DNA from: an uncultured Anaerolineaceae bacterium
Lineage (GTDB): Bacteria; Chloroflexota; Limnocylindria; Limnocylindrales; CSP1-4
Length of the DNA stretch: 64,000 nt
Reading direction: 5' to 3'
NCBI GenBank assembly: GCA_964427285.1
Contig: CAYRTS010000002.1
Coordinates: forward strand, 8,269-72,268
In this document: positions 30,731 to 61,899 of the stretch, in pieces
Numbering within the stretch: position 1 is the first letter of the stretch
Layout: each line of letters opens with the position of its first letter
Position numbers and translations under genes: made by a program
Notes under the pieces: model-generated
The model's database searches: none
What the model was told of the DNA's origin: nothing
What the model saw: the letters and a program-made list of their open reading frames with translations, nothing else

Positions 30731-31855
30731 GTGACCGCTCAGACCTCGCCCGCGCCTCGTTCCGGCCTGCCGGTCCTTGGCCAGCTGACCCCGGTGGGCC
30801 GGGCGGCGCTGCTGGTCACGGGCGTGGTCAGCGTCGCGGCGATCGTCCTTGATTTCGGCCTGCACGCCGACCCGACACTCCTGTTCGTGGTGTCGGCAAC
30901 GGCCATCCTCGGGCTGGCCTGGGTGGTCGGCCTGTCGACCGAGCGGCTCGGCTCGCTGACCGGCCCGCAGGTCGGCGGCATCCTGAACGCGACCTTTGGC
31001 AACATCGCGGAGCTGATCATCGCCTTCTTTGCGCTCCAGGCCGGCTTGATCGAGGTCGTGAAGGCGTCCCTGACCGGATCGATCATCGGCAACCTGCTCC
31101 TGGTCATGGGCGCCAGCGTCCTGTTCGGCGGCCTGCGCCATGGGACCCAGTCGTTCAGCCCGAAGATCGCCGGATCGAACGCTGCGTTGCTCGTGCTCGC
31201 CCTGATCGGGCTGTTCATCCCGGCGGTGTTCGCGCTGACCAACAGCGATCAAGCGCAGGCCACGATCACCGAGGAGTCCGTCCTCGTGGCGCTGGTCCTG
31301 ATGACTGGGTATGTGATCTCGTTGATCTACCAGTTCACCAACCCGGAACGCACGCTTGGTGGGCACGGCGAGCCGGAGGGCCATGCCGGCCCGGTCTGGA
31401 GCGGTCGGGTCGCCATCGCGGTCCTGCTCGGTGCCGCGGCGCTGCTGGCGGTGCTCTCGGAGATCCTCGTCAGCTCGATCGAGCCGTTCGTCGACACCTT
31501 CGGGCTGTCTGCCTTCTTTGTCGGCGTGGTCCTGATCCCGACCATCGGCAACCTGGCCGAGCACCTGGTCGCCGTCCAGCTGGCCTGGAAGAACAAGATG
31601 GAGTTCGCCATGGCGGTGACCTTCGGGTCGAGCCTCCAGGTCGCCCTGTTCGTGGCGCCCCTGCTGGTCCTCATCGGCGTGGCCATCGGCCAGCCGATGG
31701 ACCTGGTCTTCACGCCTCTCGAGATTGCGGCCGTCGCGGCCGCCGTCGGGATCAGCGCCCTGATGGCGATCGACGGCGAATCGAACTGGCTCGAGGGCGC
31801 CTTGCTCATTCTTGTCTACGTGATCCTGGCGGTGTCCTTCTTCGAGTTCACCTGA
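30731..31855 (+). CDS. Ca2+/H+ antiporter (CaCA family, ChaA/CAX-like)
   Basis: The protein has 11 TM helices and two alpha-repeats (GNIAELIIAFFAL and GNLAEHLVAV). Confidence 0.8.
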   Translation: MTAQTSPAPRSGLPVLGQLTPVGRAALLVTGVVSVAAIVLDFGLHADPTLLFVVSATAILGLAWVVGLSTERLGSLTGPQVGGILNATFGNIAELIIAFFALQAGLIEVVKASLTGSIIGNLLLVMGASVLFGGLRHGTQSFSPKIAGSNAALLVLALIGLFIPAVFALTNSDQAQATITEESVLVALVLMTGYVISLIYQFTNPERTLGGHGEPEGHAGPVWSGRVAIAVLLGAAALLAVLSEILVSSIEPFVDTFGLSAFFVGVVLIPTIGNLAEHLVAVQLAWKNKMEFAMAVTFGSSLQVALFVAPLLVLIGVAIGQPMDLVFTPLEIAAVAAAVGISALMAIDGESNWLEGALLILVYVILAVSFFEFT

Positions 31856-31871
31856 GTCGACTCTGCTTGAG

Positions 31872-31904
31872 CGGCGGCGGTGCAGAGGGGGTGCACCGCC
31901 GCCG
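31872..31904. terminator. 13-bp perfect hairpin between convergent genes (bidirectional terminator candidate)
   Basis: CGGCGGCGGTGCA-gaggggg-TGCACCGCCGCCG lies between the antiporter (+) and ssb (-). Confidence 0.5.
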
Positions 31905-31917
31905 AAGATGAAGGCCG

Positions 31918-32394
31918 TCAGGCCGCCTGGGCCTCGGCACCCTCATCGAGGTCGTCATCGTCGTCCGACGACTCCGAATCGAAGGTGCCGGCTGGGATCG
32001 GCTCCGATGCCGGGGCCTCGTCGAGAGCATCCGCCTGGGAGGCCAGCGAGTCGGCGGCCTGCTGGGCCTCGTAGTCCTTCTTCTTCCGACCGGACAGCAT
32101 CTCGACGTGAGATGCCACGATCTCGGTCTTCCAGTGGCGAAGGCCACGCTCGTCATCCCACGAGCGAGTCTGGAGTCGCCCTTCGATGGCGACCTGCTGG
32201 CCCTTGCCGAGGTAGCGACCGGCGATCTCCGCCAGGCGCTCCCACGTGACCACCGCGTGATATTCGGCCTTCTCCTTGCCGTGGCCGATGAATTCATTGC
32301 TGGCCACGGTGAACGTCGTGACGTTCTTGCCGCTGGCCAGACCGCGCATTTCCGGGTCGCGTGTGAGGCGCCCCGTGAGCAGGACCTTATTCAC
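31918..32394 (-). CDS. ssb: single-stranded DNA-binding protein (standalone paralog, atypical C-terminal tip)
   Basis: The gene starts at GTG after GGAAGGAG. The OB-fold core is NKVLLTGRLTRDPEMR...HAVVTWERLAEIAG...GQQVAIEGRLQTRSWDD. The acidic tail ends DDDDDLDEGAEAQAA rather than DDDIPF. Confidence 0.85.
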   Translation of the reverse strand: MNKVLLTGRLTRDPEMRGLASGKNVTTFTVASNEFIGHGKEKAEYHAVVTWERLAEIAGRYLGKGQQVAIEGRLQTRSWDDERGLRHWKTEIVASHVEMLSGRKKKDYEAQQAADSLASQADALDEAPASEPIPAGTFDSESSDDDDDLDEGAEAQAA

Positions 32395-32530
32395 GGTCCG
32401 ATCTCCTTCCCGGTCGGTCGGCTGCGCCGATCTCGACCCTGCGTCTCCGGCGGGATGACAAGATCAAGGTAGCGACGACCTCTGCACTGGCACGTATCGA
32501 GGTCTTATCCGGCGATCAACCGTGGAAGCG
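32340..32530 (-). repeat. copy A of a roughly 190-bp duplicated segment: the ssb promoter, about 90-nt leader, and first 18 codons
   Basis: This segment aligns with 34410-34600 and has conserved blocks, including a 26/26 match GGTCGAGATCGGCGCAGCCGACCGAC and GGGAAGGAGATCGGACC. It contains a -35 TTGATC / 17 nt / TACGTG on the minus strand. Confidence 0.7.
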
Positions 32531-32579
32531 ATGCCGTCAGACGTGATCTCTCGCGGGCGCGTCGATCGGGCCGTCCGGC

Positions 32580-33032
32580 CTACCGCACGCCGGCGAGGAT
32601 CTCCATGAACTCGGGGACGGTCAGTCCACCGACGCTGATGCTGTACAAGTGGCACGGTTCATCCACCGAGGCTTCCTGCCAGATGACGGCAAGTTCATTG
32701 AGCGATGCTTCGCGGAAGATCTCCGCATCATGGCCCCGGACCATGACCCGCTGGCCTGTGGGCATGCCGCCGATTGGGCCTGGACTTCCTGACACGAATG
32801 CCAGGAACCGGCCATCCGGATGCCTGTAGATCACAGTGTCCGCAAGGAAGTCCTCGCCCGCCTCGACCGAGGAGCGTTCGGCGATCTCGAAGCCGGATGG
32901 GATAACCGTCGGGTTGAGCAGCGGGCAGATTCGGGGTGAGATTGGCGGCCCCGGCGAGGTGCTCGCCGGGGCCGCGCAGCCCGCCAGCACCAACGCCAGC
33001 AGGCCGCCAAACAGGCGTGAGCGACCCGTCAC
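32580..33032 (-). CDS. hypothetical lipoprotein
   Basis: The 150 aa ORF has a signal peptide and lipobox (LALVLAGCAAP). It is the last gene of the M15-peptidase operon. I found no family match. Confidence 0.45.
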   Translation of the reverse strand: MTGRSRLFGGLLALVLAGCAAPASTSPGPPISPRICPLLNPTVIPSGFEIAERSSVEAGEDFLADTVIYRHPDGRFLAFVSGSPGPIGGMPTGQRVMVRGHDAEIFREASLNELAVIWQEASVDEPCHLYSISVGGLTVPEFMEILAGVR

Positions 33033-33784
33033 TCCTGAAATGGTGCCGGATCGGCAAGCGGCTCCTCAAGCGGGCCGCTGCCGTCAGGATGGCTTTCCTG
33101 ACCGAGCCCGACGAAACCGCCACCAAGCTTGTGCACGCGAAGCACGGTGAGATCGGCGACGCCCGCCGCTCGGGCAAAATCGATGAACTCCGCGGCGCCG
33201 AGCTTTGTTCGAAACGCCGTCAGGGTCAGGAAACGACCGGGCCTGAGGCTGAATGTCGGGGTCAGTCGCCCGGCGAGGTTCGCTCTTGCGCATGGACGGA
33301 ACCCTGGCGTGCCGCACCCGACTTCGTCTTTCGCGGCAAGGAATGGTCTGATTGCCGCCCTGCTGACGTACCTGAGGTTGACGGTCTGATACGCCTTCAC
33401 CTCGGAGAGGCCGCGAGGACATTCCATCCCGGTTTCGCGCCGCCACTCTGCACACGGGACCACGCGCAGATCGGCTGATGTCTGTTCGTAGACGCCCACA
33501 ACAGCGTAGTTGTCGGACTCATCGATGTAGAAGCCCTGCAGGTGACCGAACGAGCGCTGGGCACCAGCAGCGGCGGCCTCGGCCTCAGCGCGCGAGCCGT
33601 AGTCGCCGCCGATGACGATCAACAGTGTCTCACCGACGCCGGAGTTTGGGACGAGCGTGCCAGCATCGATCGCGGGAGCCGGCTGCTCCGGATTGCCTCC
33701 CAGGACGATCCCCGTCGTGGAGCCGGCAACGGCGATGGCTACCATCGGCAGGAAGAGCCGAAGTCGTCGTGGAACGCGTCGCAT
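33029..33784 (-). CDS. secreted protein of unknown function (possible SPOR-like domain)
   Basis: The start is chosen at MRRVPRRLRLFLPMVAIAVAG, which looks like a signal peptide. The segment LLIVIGGDYGSRAEAEAAAAGAQ...YAVVGVYEQ resembles a SPOR beta-alpha-beta-beta fold, which is speculative. It overlaps the downstream gene by 4 nt. Confidence 0.4.
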   Translation of the reverse strand: MRRVPRRLRLFLPMVAIAVAGSTTGIVLGGNPEQPAPAIDAGTLVPNSGVGETLLIVIGGDYGSRAEAEAAAAGAQRSFGHLQGFYIDESDNYAVVGVYEQTSADLRVVPCAEWRRETGMECPRGLSEVKAYQTVNLRYVSRAAIRPFLAAKDEVGCGTPGFRPCARANLAGRLTPTFSLRPGRFLTLTAFRTKLGAAEFIDFARAAGVADLTVLRVHKLGGGFVGLGQESHPDGSGPLEEPLADPAPFQE

Positions 33785-33794
33785 CGTGCTCACC

Positions 33795-34391
33795 TCAATA
33801 TCCCGTTGCGTACTGGAAGTGCATCGCGTCTCCAAACGTGATGCCCCATTTCCAGCCGTGTTGTTGAAAGATTTCGGCCACCCGTGGATCGATCGAGTGG
33901 TTGTGTTTGTGTGTCCCGCCGATGTGTTCGTATGCCGAGTTGATATCGATCGCGATGCCCCACGAGTGGGTGCTTCGGACCTGCGTCCCGTCGATGTACT
34001 TGCAGATGTACCCCCAGATCCCGTGTTTAACGGGCTTGTGCTCGTTGGTCACGTGACCTACGACATCCCACCAGAGGTTGGTCGAGAGTCCACCGTTCCC
34101 GACGTACCAGCCCGGCACCGCCTTGCCGCCAAGCTTCTTGTGGAAGTTGACGTTGTATGCCACTCCGTCGTCCCAAGCCACCCACTGGAAGCGGTTGAAG
34201 TTCTTGTCCGTGCCGAGGCACGGCTCGCCGAACGTCGCCTTGATGGCGGCAATGCCGTTGGGGACCGTCGGATAGCCATCGTGACGGTGGGTCCAGCCGG
34301 CGTTTGCTGAGTGTCCGGCGAACGCTGAGCCGACGAAGACGAACAACGCCATCGTCGCGATCCCGATGGAGCGTCGCGTGAGGCGCTTCAT
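33795..34391 (-). CDS. secreted peptidase M15 (D-Ala-D-Ala carboxypeptidase/hedgehog-type Zn peptidase fold)
   Basis: The protein has a signal peptide (MKRLTRRSIGIATMALFVFVGSAFAG). It has motifs HSWGIAIDIN and DAMHFQY, typical of the Peptidase_M15_3/VanY-like fold. Local GC is lower than the surroundings. Confidence 0.65.
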   Translation of the reverse strand: MKRLTRRSIGIATMALFVFVGSAFAGHSANAGWTHRHDGYPTVPNGIAAIKATFGEPCLGTDKNFNRFQWVAWDDGVAYNVNFHKKLGGKAVPGWYVGNGGLSTNLWWDVVGHVTNEHKPVKHGIWGYICKYIDGTQVRSTHSWGIAIDINSAYEHIGGTHKHNHSIDPRVAEIFQQHGWKWGITFGDAMHFQYATGY

Positions 34392-34468
34392 CTGACGGTC
34401 GTCCGCTGCGTTGTGGTGCGCATCCCGGCGTCTCGCACGGGGCGCTCCGTGAACAGGACCGTGTGCAT
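34388..34468 (-). CDS. 26-codon upstream ORF (ssb N-terminal remnant) translationally coupled to the M15 peptidase gene
   Basis: The peptide MHTVLFTERPVRDAGMRTTTQRTTVR* follows the same GGAAGGAG RBS as ssb. Its stop overlaps the peptidase ATG (ATGA). Its N-terminus is homologous to SSB's VNKVLLTGRLTRDPEMR. Confidence 0.45.
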   Translation of the reverse strand: MHTVLFTERPVRDAGMRTTTQRTTVR

Positions 34469-34600
34469 TGGTCCGATCTCCTTCCCGTCGGTCGGCTGCG
34501 CCGATCTCGACCTTCCAATTCCGGCGGGATGAGAACGTCAGACTAGCCAGGGACTCTGCACTCGCACGTATCGGCGGCTTATCAGGTTGTCAACCGCCTC
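34410..34600 (-). repeat. copy B of the duplicated ssb 5' segment (promoter, leader, uORF) upstream of the M15 peptidase operon
   Basis: This aligns with 32340-32530. It carries a -35 TTGACA / 17 nt / TACGTG on the minus strand at 34593-34565. Confidence 0.7.
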
Positions 34601-34808
34601 GGCCCAGCGATCACGCGCGACGGGCGGCCGATCGGCGCTGCTATACTCCGGCCCTCCTCAGAACGCGCGGGCGAGCCCGTCAACCAGGAGGTCAGCGATC
34701 GCGCTTACAGGGCGCATCGGTCGTCCCGTGAGGCGCCCGAGCGACCAGTCGACAGCGATCCGCCGAACGCTCGGTGGGTCCACGAGGGAGTGGTCTACCC
34801 GGTTCCCG

Positions 34809-34833
34809 GGCCCCCAGGCGAGGGGCCTTTTTT
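34809..34833 (+). terminator. hairpin plus T6 intrinsic terminator inside the purA 5' leader (attenuator candidate)
   Basis: GGCCCC-caggcga-GGGGCC-TTTTTT lies 46 nt upstream of the purA start. No + strand gene lies upstream, only a candidate -10 TATACT at 34642. Confidence 0.5.
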
Positions 34834-34879
34834 CATGGTCCCGGACGCGGCGCGCAAATCGCGCAGGAGACGCGTCCTG

Positions 34880-36220
34880 ATGCCGGCCACCGTGATCGTC
34901 GGGCTCCAGTGGGGCGACGAGGGCAAGGGCAAGATGACGGACTTCCTGGCCGAGGGGGTGGCCATGGTCGTCCGCTACCAGGGTGGCGACAACGCCGGAC
35001 ACACCGTGGTCAAGGGTGACGAGGTCTTCAAGCTCCGCCTGACGCCGTCGGGCGTGCTTTACCCGCACATCACGTCGGTGATCGGCAACGGCGTCGTGGT
35101 CAACCCGGTCACCCTGATCGACGAGCTGGACATGCTCGCCGCGCGTGGCATCGACGTCGCCCGCGTCCGCGTGAGCCGCAGCTCGCACGTGATCATGCCG
35201 TACCACGTGGCCCTGGACGTCGGCAACGAGCTCCGCCTGGGCGACGCAAAGGTGGGCACGACCGGGCGCGGGATCGGGCCGACGTATGGCGATCGGGCCT
35301 GGCGGATCGGCCTGCGCATGGAGGACCTCCTCGACCCGGCGATCCTGCGCGAACGGATCGGCCGTGCGCTGCCCGACAAGAACCTCCTGCTCGAGGCGAT
35401 GGGCTGCCCAACCTTTGAAGTCGAACCTCTGGTCGTGATGGCGGCGACCTGGGGCGAACGCCTCCGCCCCCATCTTGATGACACTACGTGGCTGGTCCAG
35501 GGCGCCCTCGCCCGTGGGGAGCACGTGCTCCTGGAAGGTGCCCAGGGGACGCTCCTGGATCTCGATCACGGGAGCTACCCGTTCGTGACGTCATCGAATC
35601 CGGTCGCCGGCGGCGCCTGCACCGGCGGGGGGATCGGGCCGCTCCAGGTGGACGAGGTGATCGGGGTCATCAAGGCCTACTCAACCCGGGTCGGCTCCGG
35701 ACCCTATCCGACCGAGCTGCACGACGAGATCGGGGCCGGGATCGCCTCGCGCGGCCACGAATTCGGGACGGTCACGGGGCGGCCGCGGCGGGTCGGCTGG
35801 CTGGACGTGGTGCCGCTGCGCTATGCCGTCGCCGTCAACAGCGTCAGTTCGATCACCCTCAACAAGCTCGACATCCTCTCTGGCATCGAAACCATTCGCG
35901 TGTGCGTTGCCTACGACCTTGACGGTCAACGGGTCGAAACCTGGCCATCGAGCGGCGCCTCGCTCGCCCGGGCCACCCCGATCTACGAGGACTTCCCAGG
36001 CTGGAACGAGCCGATCCACGATGTCCGGTCGCTGGCCGACCTGCCCGAGAACGCCCGGCGTTACGTCACCGCCATCGAGACCCACGCGGGCGTCCCGATC
36101 ATCTTCGTATCCGTCGGCCCGGAGCGAACCCAGACGATCGAGCGGGCCTGGCGGCCGATGCGGGGACGGTCCGGCCTCGCCGGCGGGATGTCCGGCGGGC
36201 AGCCCGGGGGGGTCGGGTGA
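34880..36220 (+). CDS. purA: adenylosuccinate synthetase
   Basis: The N-terminus is MPATVIVGLQWGDEGKGKMTD, the canonical PurA P-loop start. The ORF is full length. Confidence 0.9.
   Translation: MPATVIVGLQWGDEGKGKMTDFLAEGVAMVVRYQGGDNAGHTVVKGDEVFKLRLTPSGVLYPHITSVIGNGVVVNPVTLIDELDMLAARGIDVARVRVSRSSHVIMPYHVALDVGNELRLGDAKVGTTGRGIGPTYGDRAWRIGLRMEDLLDPAILRERIGRALPDKNLLLEAMGCPTFEVEPLVVMAATWGERLRPHLDDTTWLVQGALARGEHVLLEGAQGTLLDLDHGSYPFVTSSNPVAGGACTGGGIGPLQVDEVIGVIKAYSTRVGSGPYPTELHDEIGAGIASRGHEFGTVTGRPRRVGWLDVVPLRYAVAVNSVSSITLNKLDILSGIETIRVCVAYDLDGQRVETWPSSGASLARATPIYEDFPGWNEPIHDVRSLADLPENARRYVTAIETHAGVPIIFVSVGPERTQTIERAWRPMRGRSGLAGGMSGGQPGGVG

Positions 36221-58673: not shown

Positions 58674-61899
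<3,226 letters not shown>

Follow-up and report, generated by a model that had tools for sequence, protein, structure and literature searches.

Why should an operon for a secreted peptidase be preceded by the 5' end of a gene for single-stranded DNA-binding protein (SSB)? The question is raised by a 64-kb stretch of DNA (the window) from an uncultured bacterium that its SSB relatives place in Candidatus Limnocylindrales (Chloroflexota). The window contains one intact ssb gene (31918..32394, minus strand), which encodes a protein of 158 amino acids (aa; Pfam SSB, E = 9e-33). The ssb promoter region, 5' untranslated region (5' UTR) and codons 1-26 are termed copy A (32317..32522, minus strand), which runs on into the intact gene. 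Copy B (34388..34596, also on the minus strand) is paralogous to ssb positions -128..+78 and lies directly before the peptidase gene, the first gene of a three-gene operon (the cargo) situated between the two copies. A first-pass annotation had proposed that this operon had taken over an ssb-type promoter and leader, and comparative evidence now upholds the proposal, as copy B is found with the operon in three lineages and is under purifying selection. Co-option of copy B as the promoter and leader of the operon is well supported by these sequence comparisons, and copy B is probably a captured ssb promoter-leader-start module in the full sense of the mechanism set out below.

Copies A and B align over ~205 nucleotides (ssb -128 to +78) with ~78% identity by using MAFFT, and blastn reports 180 nucleotides at 77.8% identity (E = 3.6e-34). 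Two blocks are identical in both copies, and each occurs exactly twice in the window against an expectation of ~0 in shuffled sequences: GGTCGAGATCGGCGCAGCCGACCGAC (32413-32438 and 34487-34512) and CGGGAAGGAGATCGGACC (32395-32412 and 34470-34487). When a covariance model was run with filters off over all 64 kb, the two copies scored 95.6 and 59.9 bits, and the next-best match scored 16 bits. This third match (60317-60378) sits within a long open reading frame (ORF) and was rejected as noise; pattern search, nhmmer and the covariance model found no third copy in the window. The presence of two ssb-type copies with common identical blocks, as first annotated, is therefore borne out by formal alignment, and the similarity exceeds what base composition alone would give. 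Two details of the annotation do not hold. The homology was thought to be limited to the first 18 codons, and in fact reaches ssb +78, at codon 26. Also, a promoter cassette or miniature inverted-repeat transposable element (MITE) was envisaged, but both of the copies found in the window are at the ssb locus.

To establish which copy is ancestral, 80 species-level Limnocylindrales genomes were compared. The gene order purA (divergent), variable gap, ssb, CaCA exchanger is kept in these genomes, and the same leader is found upstream of ssb in all 80 of them. The sequence upstream of ssb in the closest relatives is 89-94% identical to copy A and ~79% identical to copy B. Because copy A is the closer of the two and the leader is order-wide, A represents the orthologous control region of ssb and B a paralogue. 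Thus, by orthology, copy A is the ancestral promoter and leader of ssb, which is here monocistronic and has its own promoter.

The operon, in contrast, is a newcomer. None of the 80 ancestral-context loci has the peptidase, 251-aa protein or lipoprotein genes in the purA-ssb gap. The gene for the 251-aa protein follows that of the peptidase in 68 of 80 metagenome loci (41-58% identity) that have neither ssb nor the ssb leader nearby. The same pair occurs elsewhere at 72-73% identity, in L088 and in contig P0003, where it is next to an oxidoreductase gene. A metagenome scan for relatives of the peptidase returned only distant ones (<=58% identity) and no more B copies. The absence of the operon from the 80 ssb loci, together with the wide occurrence of the gene pair elsewhere, indicates that the operon was inserted between the purA leader and ssb in this lineage. 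The locus structure is reproduced by independent Logan contigs from 4 sequencing runs, of which contig L001 alone spans B, the operon, A and ssb, and the same layout is present in a diverged relative. The structure is therefore not an assembly artefact.

The B-carrying lineages available for comparison are the window, L087 (from a JGI sample), and L085/L086 (from two SRA runs and an ENA assembly). The L087 sequence covers the peptidase gene and part of the 251-aa gene, whose products are 95% and 89% (partial) identical to those of the window. L085/L086 is more distant, with amino acid identities to the window of 95.5% for purA, 93.7% for SSB, 74% for the peptidase, 66% for the 251-aa protein and 71% for the lipoprotein. 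The L087 copy B reads ...GAACGTCAC|ATG where the ssb equivalent reads ...GAACGTCAC|GACG, and this match up to the ATG places the junction immediately at the peptidase start codon.

Substitutions are distributed very unevenly over copy B. Between the window and L087, the promoter is identical at 60 of 63 positions (95%), the 5' UTR at 64 of 64, and the remnant of the ssb coding region, an upstream ORF (uORF), at 63 of 77 (18% differ). In the two downstream genes, 33 of 206 fourfold-degenerate sites differ (16%). At this neutral divergence, the probability of 0 changes in 64 UTR sites is ~1e-5, whereas the uORF has changed at the neutral rate (18% against 16%). Copy B of the window and that of L085 are 81% identical in the promoter, 88% in the 5' UTR and 84% in the uORF. 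Between copies A and B of the window, the corresponding values are 71%, 92% and, for the coding part, 60%. In a sliding comparison of the window with L085, copy B and the signal-peptide codons are 81-91% identical, and the remainder of the cargo 56-80%. Conservation of the leader in excess of that of the coding part, as would be expected of a functional element, was already suspected from the window, and is now evident both between copies and between lineages, as well as in the covariation of the hairpin described below.

Two derived states are present in all three B copies and in no A copy: a 1-nucleotide deletion at the foot of the hairpin (CCGA-CGGG) and a GTG to ATG change with one extra base. 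These shared states imply that B arose once and was not homogenised with A. The upstream neighbour of copy B, a leader RNA of purA, is divergent, and its -10 element lies only 45 nucleotides from the edge of B, so the promoter of the operon has to be within or beside B. The identity of promoter and 5' UTR relative to neutral divergence, and the lack of space for another promoter, argue that both parts of B have been kept by selection as expression signals of the operon.

The promoter can be placed by alignment with relatives, which keep (T)TGCTAnnnT, an extended -10 element, ~7 nucleotides before UCAUCCCGCC. The aligned sequences are TACCTT in the context TCGCTACCTT (32466..32471, minus strand), the likely -10 of ssb, and TAGTCT (34540..34545, minus strand), the likely -10 of copy B, for which L087 has TGCTAGTCT. 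Transcription is predicted to start near 32458 for ssb and near 34532 for copy B. The promoter of the purA-upstream RNA, TGCTATACT (34639-34647, plus strand), is an invariant extended -10 of the same form. A scan with the sigma-70 consensus found no promoter.

A different promoter had been annotated originally, a -35/-10 pair spaced by 17 nucleotides (TTGAyn-17-TACGTG). This pair does exist in both copies (in A at 32514-32519 and 32491-32496), but its "-10" ends in G, and relatives keep neither the final T nor the "-35". It was set aside as the conserved promoter because relatives keep TGCTAnnnT, 20 nucleotides further downstream, instead. The same region holds four motifs spaced ~10-12 nucleotides apart that are common to A, B and close relatives: TTGATC, GATAAG, GATACG and GTGCAG in A (32482..32519, minus strand), and TTGACA, GATAAG, GATACG and GTGCAG in B (34556..34593, minus strand; identified by alignment). 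This stretch may serve as a second promoter or bind a regulator.

The 5' UTR contains a hairpin. In the ssb leader it has the sequence GGUCG-AGA-UCGGC-GCA-GCCGA-C-CGACC (32412..32438, minus strand), and its 3' base is 3 nucleotides before the ribosome binding site (RBS). The hairpin in copy B (34487..34512, minus strand), recognized by block match, folding and the covariance model, has the same sequence save for the 1-nucleotide deletion at its 3' foot. The consensus of 77 distinct orthologous ssb leaders is ...CCCGCCG-(N)-ACGCAGGGUCG-(variable stem-loop)-CCGACCGrG-AAGGAG-(N8)-GUG. The central part occurs in 62 distinct versions, each of which folds as a hairpin of 10-12 base pairs in the same place (mean -17.3 kcal/mol). 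The alignment cells are paired in 90.8% of cases, compared with <=57% when the partner is slid by 1-3 columns. Changes on both sides are seen in 8 of 16 hairpin pairs, with the inner stem occurring as UCGGC/GCCGA, CCGGA/UCCGG or CCGGU/ACCGG, and the outer stem as GGUC/GACC, GAUC/GAUC or GGCC/GGCC. The observed covariation score was reached by 0 of 500 shuffles. The pairing was specified by hand and then tested, as the default consensus of RNAalifold used a shifted register. The loop and bulge are not conserved.

On the evidence of this covariation, the ssb leader hairpin is a real RNA structure, kept through compensatory changes. It is a new, previously undescribed motif that occurs order-wide. 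Rfam 15 has no match at the gathering threshold in the window, and only chance-level matches at E <= 10 in 31800-35000, so the Rfam and covariance analysis that was suggested with the original annotation yields a structure supported by covariation and no known family. The start codon is bracketed by a second, putative small helix (GGACC/GGUCC), which hardly varies. Pairing over longer distances within the leader (CCCGC with GCAGGG, and CCCG with CGGG beside the RBS) was considered and dropped, as changes either affect one side without compensation or are absent from both.

Duplications of the ssb 5' end are not confined to the window. A partial ssb 5' copy, followed by cargo and then by promoter, leader and intact ssb in the same orientation, is found in four other Limnocylindrales genomes. 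In L010 (4700-6000) the duplicate spans ~-150..+135 and the 0.95-kb cargo has a DUF4760 gene on the opposite strand. In L012 (2100-6120) it spans -185..+120 with 3.4 kb of cargo; the copies are 100% identical, which implies a recent event, and the upstream copy lacks 101 base pairs, so that leader and start are gone. L025 (5859-6053) has an in-frame 81-bp tandem duplication (-21..+60) with no cargo. L084 (1139-1740) has only an upstream fragment (codons 4-51), separated from ssb by 0.34 kb. The boundaries of the duplicate differ in every genome. If the first start codon is used, the L025 repeat would add 27 residues to SSB.

Some of these loci carry hints of the process. The GGDEF-HD gene of L012 is still contiguous with the upstream partial copy of ssb, which implies that the cargo and a fresh promoter-leader-ssb 5' unit were inserted within ssb. 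The two copies in L010 are near-identical in leader and coding part, but their promoters agree at only ~80% of positions, a pattern that orthologues from two separate lineages would show. Neither the L010 cargo nor that of L012 has a counterpart in the other loci compared. Most likely, the event in the window belongs to a recurrent class within the order, in which DNA is inserted at ssb by using this conserved gene as a homologous anchor. The specific route that we favour is tentative and, taken by itself, less likely than not: an incoming cargo-promoter-ssb segment would have recombined through a homology anchor in ssb while its other end was joined illegitimately in the recipient's ssb 5' region, with only those products that have an intact ssb being viable. 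Alternatives to anchored insertion are tandem duplication followed by deletion, and Campbell-type integration of an excised circle.

The coding part of copy B retains a 26-codon uORF that starts with ATG and ends in a TGA overlapping the peptidase ATG (34388..34468, minus strand). The ATGA lies at 34388-34391 and the peptidase ATG at 34389-34391, which confirms the earlier observation that the SSB-derived frame ends on the peptidase start. The uORF is preceded by the Shine-Dalgarno sequence AAGGAG (34478..34483, minus strand), the equivalent of AAGGAG at 32403..32408 (minus strand) before the GTG start of ssb (32392-32394). All three lineages keep the strong ssb RBS, the ATG, exactly 26 codons without an insertion or deletion, and the stop on the peptidase ATG. 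The remnant peptides are MHTVLFTERPVRDAGMRTTTQRTTVR in the window, where the stop codon follows directly, and MHTVLFRARPARNAGTRTALHGTNVT and MDTVLFRERPARSAGRRTTLQRTSVT in the other lineages. The start codon has improved from GTG to ATG in the B copies. Before the peptidase ATG itself, only a weak GGA motif (GGAC) is present, 10-13 nucleotides upstream. Given this weak motif, termination followed by re-initiation at AUGA is the simplest reading, and translational coupling of the uORF to the peptidase is plausible but unproven from these sequence features.

We therefore propose the following mechanism. Copy B would have arisen when the peptidase/251-aa protein/lipoprotein cassette came between two copies of the ssb 5' end, and would comprise the ssb promoter, a ~64-nucleotide 5' UTR and the first 26 codons, now serving as the expression module of the operon. 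Transcription would proceed from the ssb-type extended -10 (TAGTCT, 34540-34545), so that the operon mRNA would carry the ssb leader with its stable hairpin just 5' of the AAGGAG RBS. Ribosomes would start at the remnant ATG (34468), read 26 codons without conserved meaning and stop at the UGA of AUGA, from which re-initiation on the peptidase AUG would be possible. The cell-wall operon would thereby take on both the strength of the ssb promoter and the way in which ssb translation is initiated. In this model, we infer the site of transcription start, translation of the uORF, its coupling to the peptidase and co-regulation with ssb.

Several observations weigh against this mechanism. The functional readings rest on comparative sequence evidence, and only three B lineages are available. 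An ACGCAG block that is near-invariant in ssb leaders is replaced by UUGGAA in copy B of the window and L087, and L085 B still has ACGCAA. Whatever acts on ACGCAG in ssb is apparently dispensable for the operon, and B need not have every regulatory input of ssb. The peptide of the uORF is not conserved: of the 12 codons that differ between the window and L086, 10 have non-synonymous changes, so the peptide sequence itself is evidently not the point. By a rough estimate, the persistence of a 26-codon frame by chance in GC-rich DNA is unlikely to a degree that still leaves it worth considering, and the GGA motif might allow the peptidase to initiate independently. The examples of L010, with a cargo gene in the opposite orientation, and L012, where the upstream copy has lost its leader, indicate that duplication as such is a by-product of insertion and not evidence of co-option.

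An alternative is that copy B supplies a promoter and 5' UTR and the uORF is irrelevant, with the peptidase initiating by itself and ATGA being a by-product of the junction. In addition to the neutral rate of change in the uORF and its unconserved peptide, the A of ATGA is fixed by the lysine or arginine second codon of the peptidase, and a peptidase that is 77% identical (L169) has its ATG ~19 nucleotides after an ssb-like start region, with its own AGAGG ~9 nucleotides upstream and no long uORF. Against this stand the retention of RBS, ATG, frame (no insertion or deletion in 81 nucleotides) and exact stop in all three B lineages, the improved start codon, and the apparent lack of a good Shine-Dalgarno sequence before the peptidase ATG. 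We consider an irrelevant uORF doubtful, though it has to be taken seriously.

It is unlikely that copy B is a decaying, non-functional scar of recombination and that the operon is transcribed from elsewhere. Equivalent scars are indeed seen in L010 and L012, the ACGCAG block is gone from copy B of the window, and identity to A is only 60% in the coding part. Decay is nonetheless difficult to reconcile with an unchanged 5' UTR and a nearly unchanged promoter at 16% neutral divergence, with the survival of B in three lineages despite differences of up to 34% between their cargo proteins, or with the gap between B and the divergent purA-leader promoter, which is too short to hold another promoter. 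A further explanation, that the identical blocks of A and B are kept by gene conversion between direct repeats 2 kb apart instead of by selection, is very improbable. It would account for identical runs of 26 and 18 nucleotides within an otherwise 78% identical repeat, but exactly at the edges of these blocks, copy B has derived states common to the three lineages that set it apart from every A copy, the A and B hairpins of L085 have each changed independently, and conversion from A cannot explain B-specific states or the conservation of the B 5' UTR across genomes. Finally, an origin of copy B as a MITE, as a mobile promoter cassette or as the duplicated attachment (att) site of an integrative element is scarcely credible: direct repeats do flank a 1.9-kb cargo and the gene content of the purA-ssb gap does vary between genomes, but the window has just two copies, extra copies in relatives always adjoin ssb, no terminal inverted repeats were found, no cargo encodes an integrase or transposase, boundaries differ per genome, no tRNA or tmRNA gene was found that might act as an integration target, none of 2.9 million viral contigs contains the leader, and phage proteins match only the generic ~60-residue catalytic domain of the peptidase. 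Capture of an ssb promoter, leader and start region thus remains the preferred reading of copy B.

The operon that is expressed from copy B in this reading consists of three genes on the minus strand. The first (33795..34391) encodes a secreted zinc peptidase of 198 aa with an N-terminal signal peptide, which belongs to the LAS-type family Peptidase_M15_4 (Pfam E = 4.8e-13; 49.9 bits against a cut-off of 25), and whose metal-site residues H142, D149 and H191 are invariant in 16 homologues. The second (33029..33784) encodes an exported or membrane-anchored protein of 251 aa that is a conserved partner of the peptidase. This protein had been labelled SPOR-like, for which no support was obtained: it has no Pfam match even at E <= 10 and no sequence match in PDB, and a single-sequence AlphaFold2 model was unusable (predicted local distance difference test score of 36.5). 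The third gene (32580..33032), the start of which overlaps the stop of the second, encodes a predicted lipoprotein of 150 aa with the lipobox VLAGC and has homologues in L085, L090 and L096.

When the window is compared with L085, 40-62% of fourfold-degenerate sites differ in the cargo (window 32580-34320, L085 680-2491) and 21-23% in purA and ssb, so that the cargo is far more diverged than its flanks. This deeper synonymous divergence suggests either that the cassette was exchanged between lineages through the conserved flanks or that the secreted proteins evolve unusually fast.

Resemblances to ssb are also found at the peptidase start itself. In L169 (200-260), 35 nucleotides around the peptidase ATG, CCGTGcAAAGAGGTCCTGCTGATGAGGCGACTAAC, resemble the ssb start CCGTG-AATAAGGTCCTGCTCACGGGGCGCCTCAC, and the score is reached by 1 of 2000 shuffles. 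This stretch is a caveat to the statement that the captured genes exist elsewhere without an ssb leader. In the window, peptidase codons 2-7 (GCGCCTCACGCGAC, K/R-R-L-T-R; 34371-34391) resemble ssb +24..+39 (32355-32371; SSB codons 8-13, G-R-L-T-R-D) with p ~0.03. Such resemblances may reflect a second ssb junction, either older or derived by deletion, or microhomology used in recombination.

Other features surround the ssb gene. In most relatives (~49 loci; for example, L012 354-2147), a GGDEF-HD gene that is diguanylate cyclase- or phosphohydrolase-like is located directly upstream of ssb, and in most relatives it ends 300-900 nucleotides before ssb. This gene is absent altogether from the window. 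In model bacteria, the canonical C-terminal tip of SSB, D-D-D-I-P-F, mediates partner binding. The C-terminus of SSB in the window (31918-31990, minus strand) and in relatives is an acidic tail, ...DDDDDLDEGAEAQAA, without this tip. A perfect 13-bp inverted repeat, CGGCGGCGGTGCA-N7-TGCACCGCCGCCG (31872-31904), lies between the convergent stops of ssb (31918) and the CaCA exchanger gene (31855), and is probably a terminator hairpin shared by the two genes, though it has no T-run.

The neighbour of copy B is a non-coding element of ~185 nucleotides directly upstream of purA, with a predicted RNA at ~34654-34835 on the plus strand. The stem of an intrinsic terminator (34808-34828, plus strand), which covaries, is followed by a T-run, and the purA ATG (34880, plus strand) is 45 nucleotides after the terminator. 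The RNA is 96-98% identical to its L086 counterpart, compared with 92% for purA at the nucleotide level, and is found beside purA in ~47 or more related loci. RNAalifold predicts 43 pairs, of which 11 show compensatory changes, and a scan of 34600-34880 found no match in Rfam. In a relative, the RNA is followed by purA-purD-purB-purC-purS-purQ-purL. On the basis of its conservation and position, it looks like a leader or candidate riboswitch of the purine operon, or else a small RNA. In L045, L011, L042, L021, L028, L034, L031, L029, L037, L008, L019, L053 and L082, an extra insert of ~100-150 nucleotides is present between the terminator of the purA leader and the purA start. A recurring sequence of the type GCGCTCGCTC..GTGCTCGCC is found within them in one orientation or the other, and the inserts may represent a small repeat element.

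The locus suggests that a newly placed operon can gain a full expression module, with promoter, structured leader, RBS and start codon, in one step. Selection on such a module can be read from the sequence, as the captured promoter and 5' UTR are frozen and the coding remnant drifts. If coupling is true, a relic ORF persists as a coupling device. The duplications in other genomes point to ssb as a recombination anchor that repeatedly generates spare modules. A broader idea, which is speculative and rather improbable as a whole, is that foreign or shuffled genes have repeatedly entered Limnocylindrales genomes at the ssb 5' end, that each event leaves a spare ssb module that can be recruited, and that in the window this module ties a septal or cell-wall hydrolase operon to an ssb-type leader that is regulated post-transcriptionally, possibly by SSB, and so links wall remodelling to replication status.

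Elements of the proposed history resemble known systems. Homology-facilitated illegitimate recombination during natural transformation, reportedly described by de Vries and Wackernagel and by Prudhomme and co-workers, both in 2002, is alike in that one anchor and one illegitimate junction give the order recipient ssb 5' end, cargo, promoter-leader-ssb. Here, the process is deduced from architecture, and the identical copies of L012 fit an event within one genome or population equally well. Translational coupling via overlapping stop and start codons (AUGA) occurs in trp operons. The arrangement in copy B is alike in its 4-nucleotide overlap, its strong upstream Shine-Dalgarno sequence and a downstream start whose own Shine-Dalgarno sequence seems weak at best, and differs in that the first ORF derives from another gene, of which it is a 26-codon remnant without a conserved peptide, and in that coupling is putative.

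Leaders of ssb genes also have precedents. Conserved structured leaders that contain the rpsF (S6:S18) motif precede rpsF-ssb-rpsR operons in many phyla (PMC3854524). Both are structured leaders at ssb loci, but the ssb gene described here is monocistronic and has its own promoter, and its leader, which is not the S6:S18 one, gives no Rfam match. The single-strand-binding proteins of phages T4 and RB69 act on autogenous translational operators in gene 32 (PMC535899). There, as here, the gene is preceded by a conserved leader with a folded element beside the initiation region. The hairpin in Limnocylindrales is, however, simple and GC-rich, with no pseudoknot and A/U-rich tract, and has no similarity in sequence or structure to the phage operators. 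By analogy, SSB might bind its own leader, which is pure conjecture.

The closest parallel to copy B is the rnk-citT module of Cit+ E. coli from the Lenski experiment, in which a promoter was captured by duplication (discussed in PMC5918244 and PMC4718724); 'promoter capture' has also been described for a transferred gene (PMC6614815). In both the rnk-citT module and copy B, a duplicated promoter and 5' gene fragment stand before a gene formerly without them, the remnant ORF is truncated, and the downstream gene is, or in copy B would be, switched on. Unlike in rnk-citT, a whole structured 5' UTR and RBS are captured here, the essential donor gene keeps its own copy, the remnant ends in ATGA, and function is deduced from conservation. 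The module in the window is also natural and old, being found in three lineages, and its coding part is only 60% identical to its source. The best-known cases of promoter capture by duplication come from evolution in the laboratory, and copy B represents a natural and evolutionarily stable example from an uncultured soil phylum.

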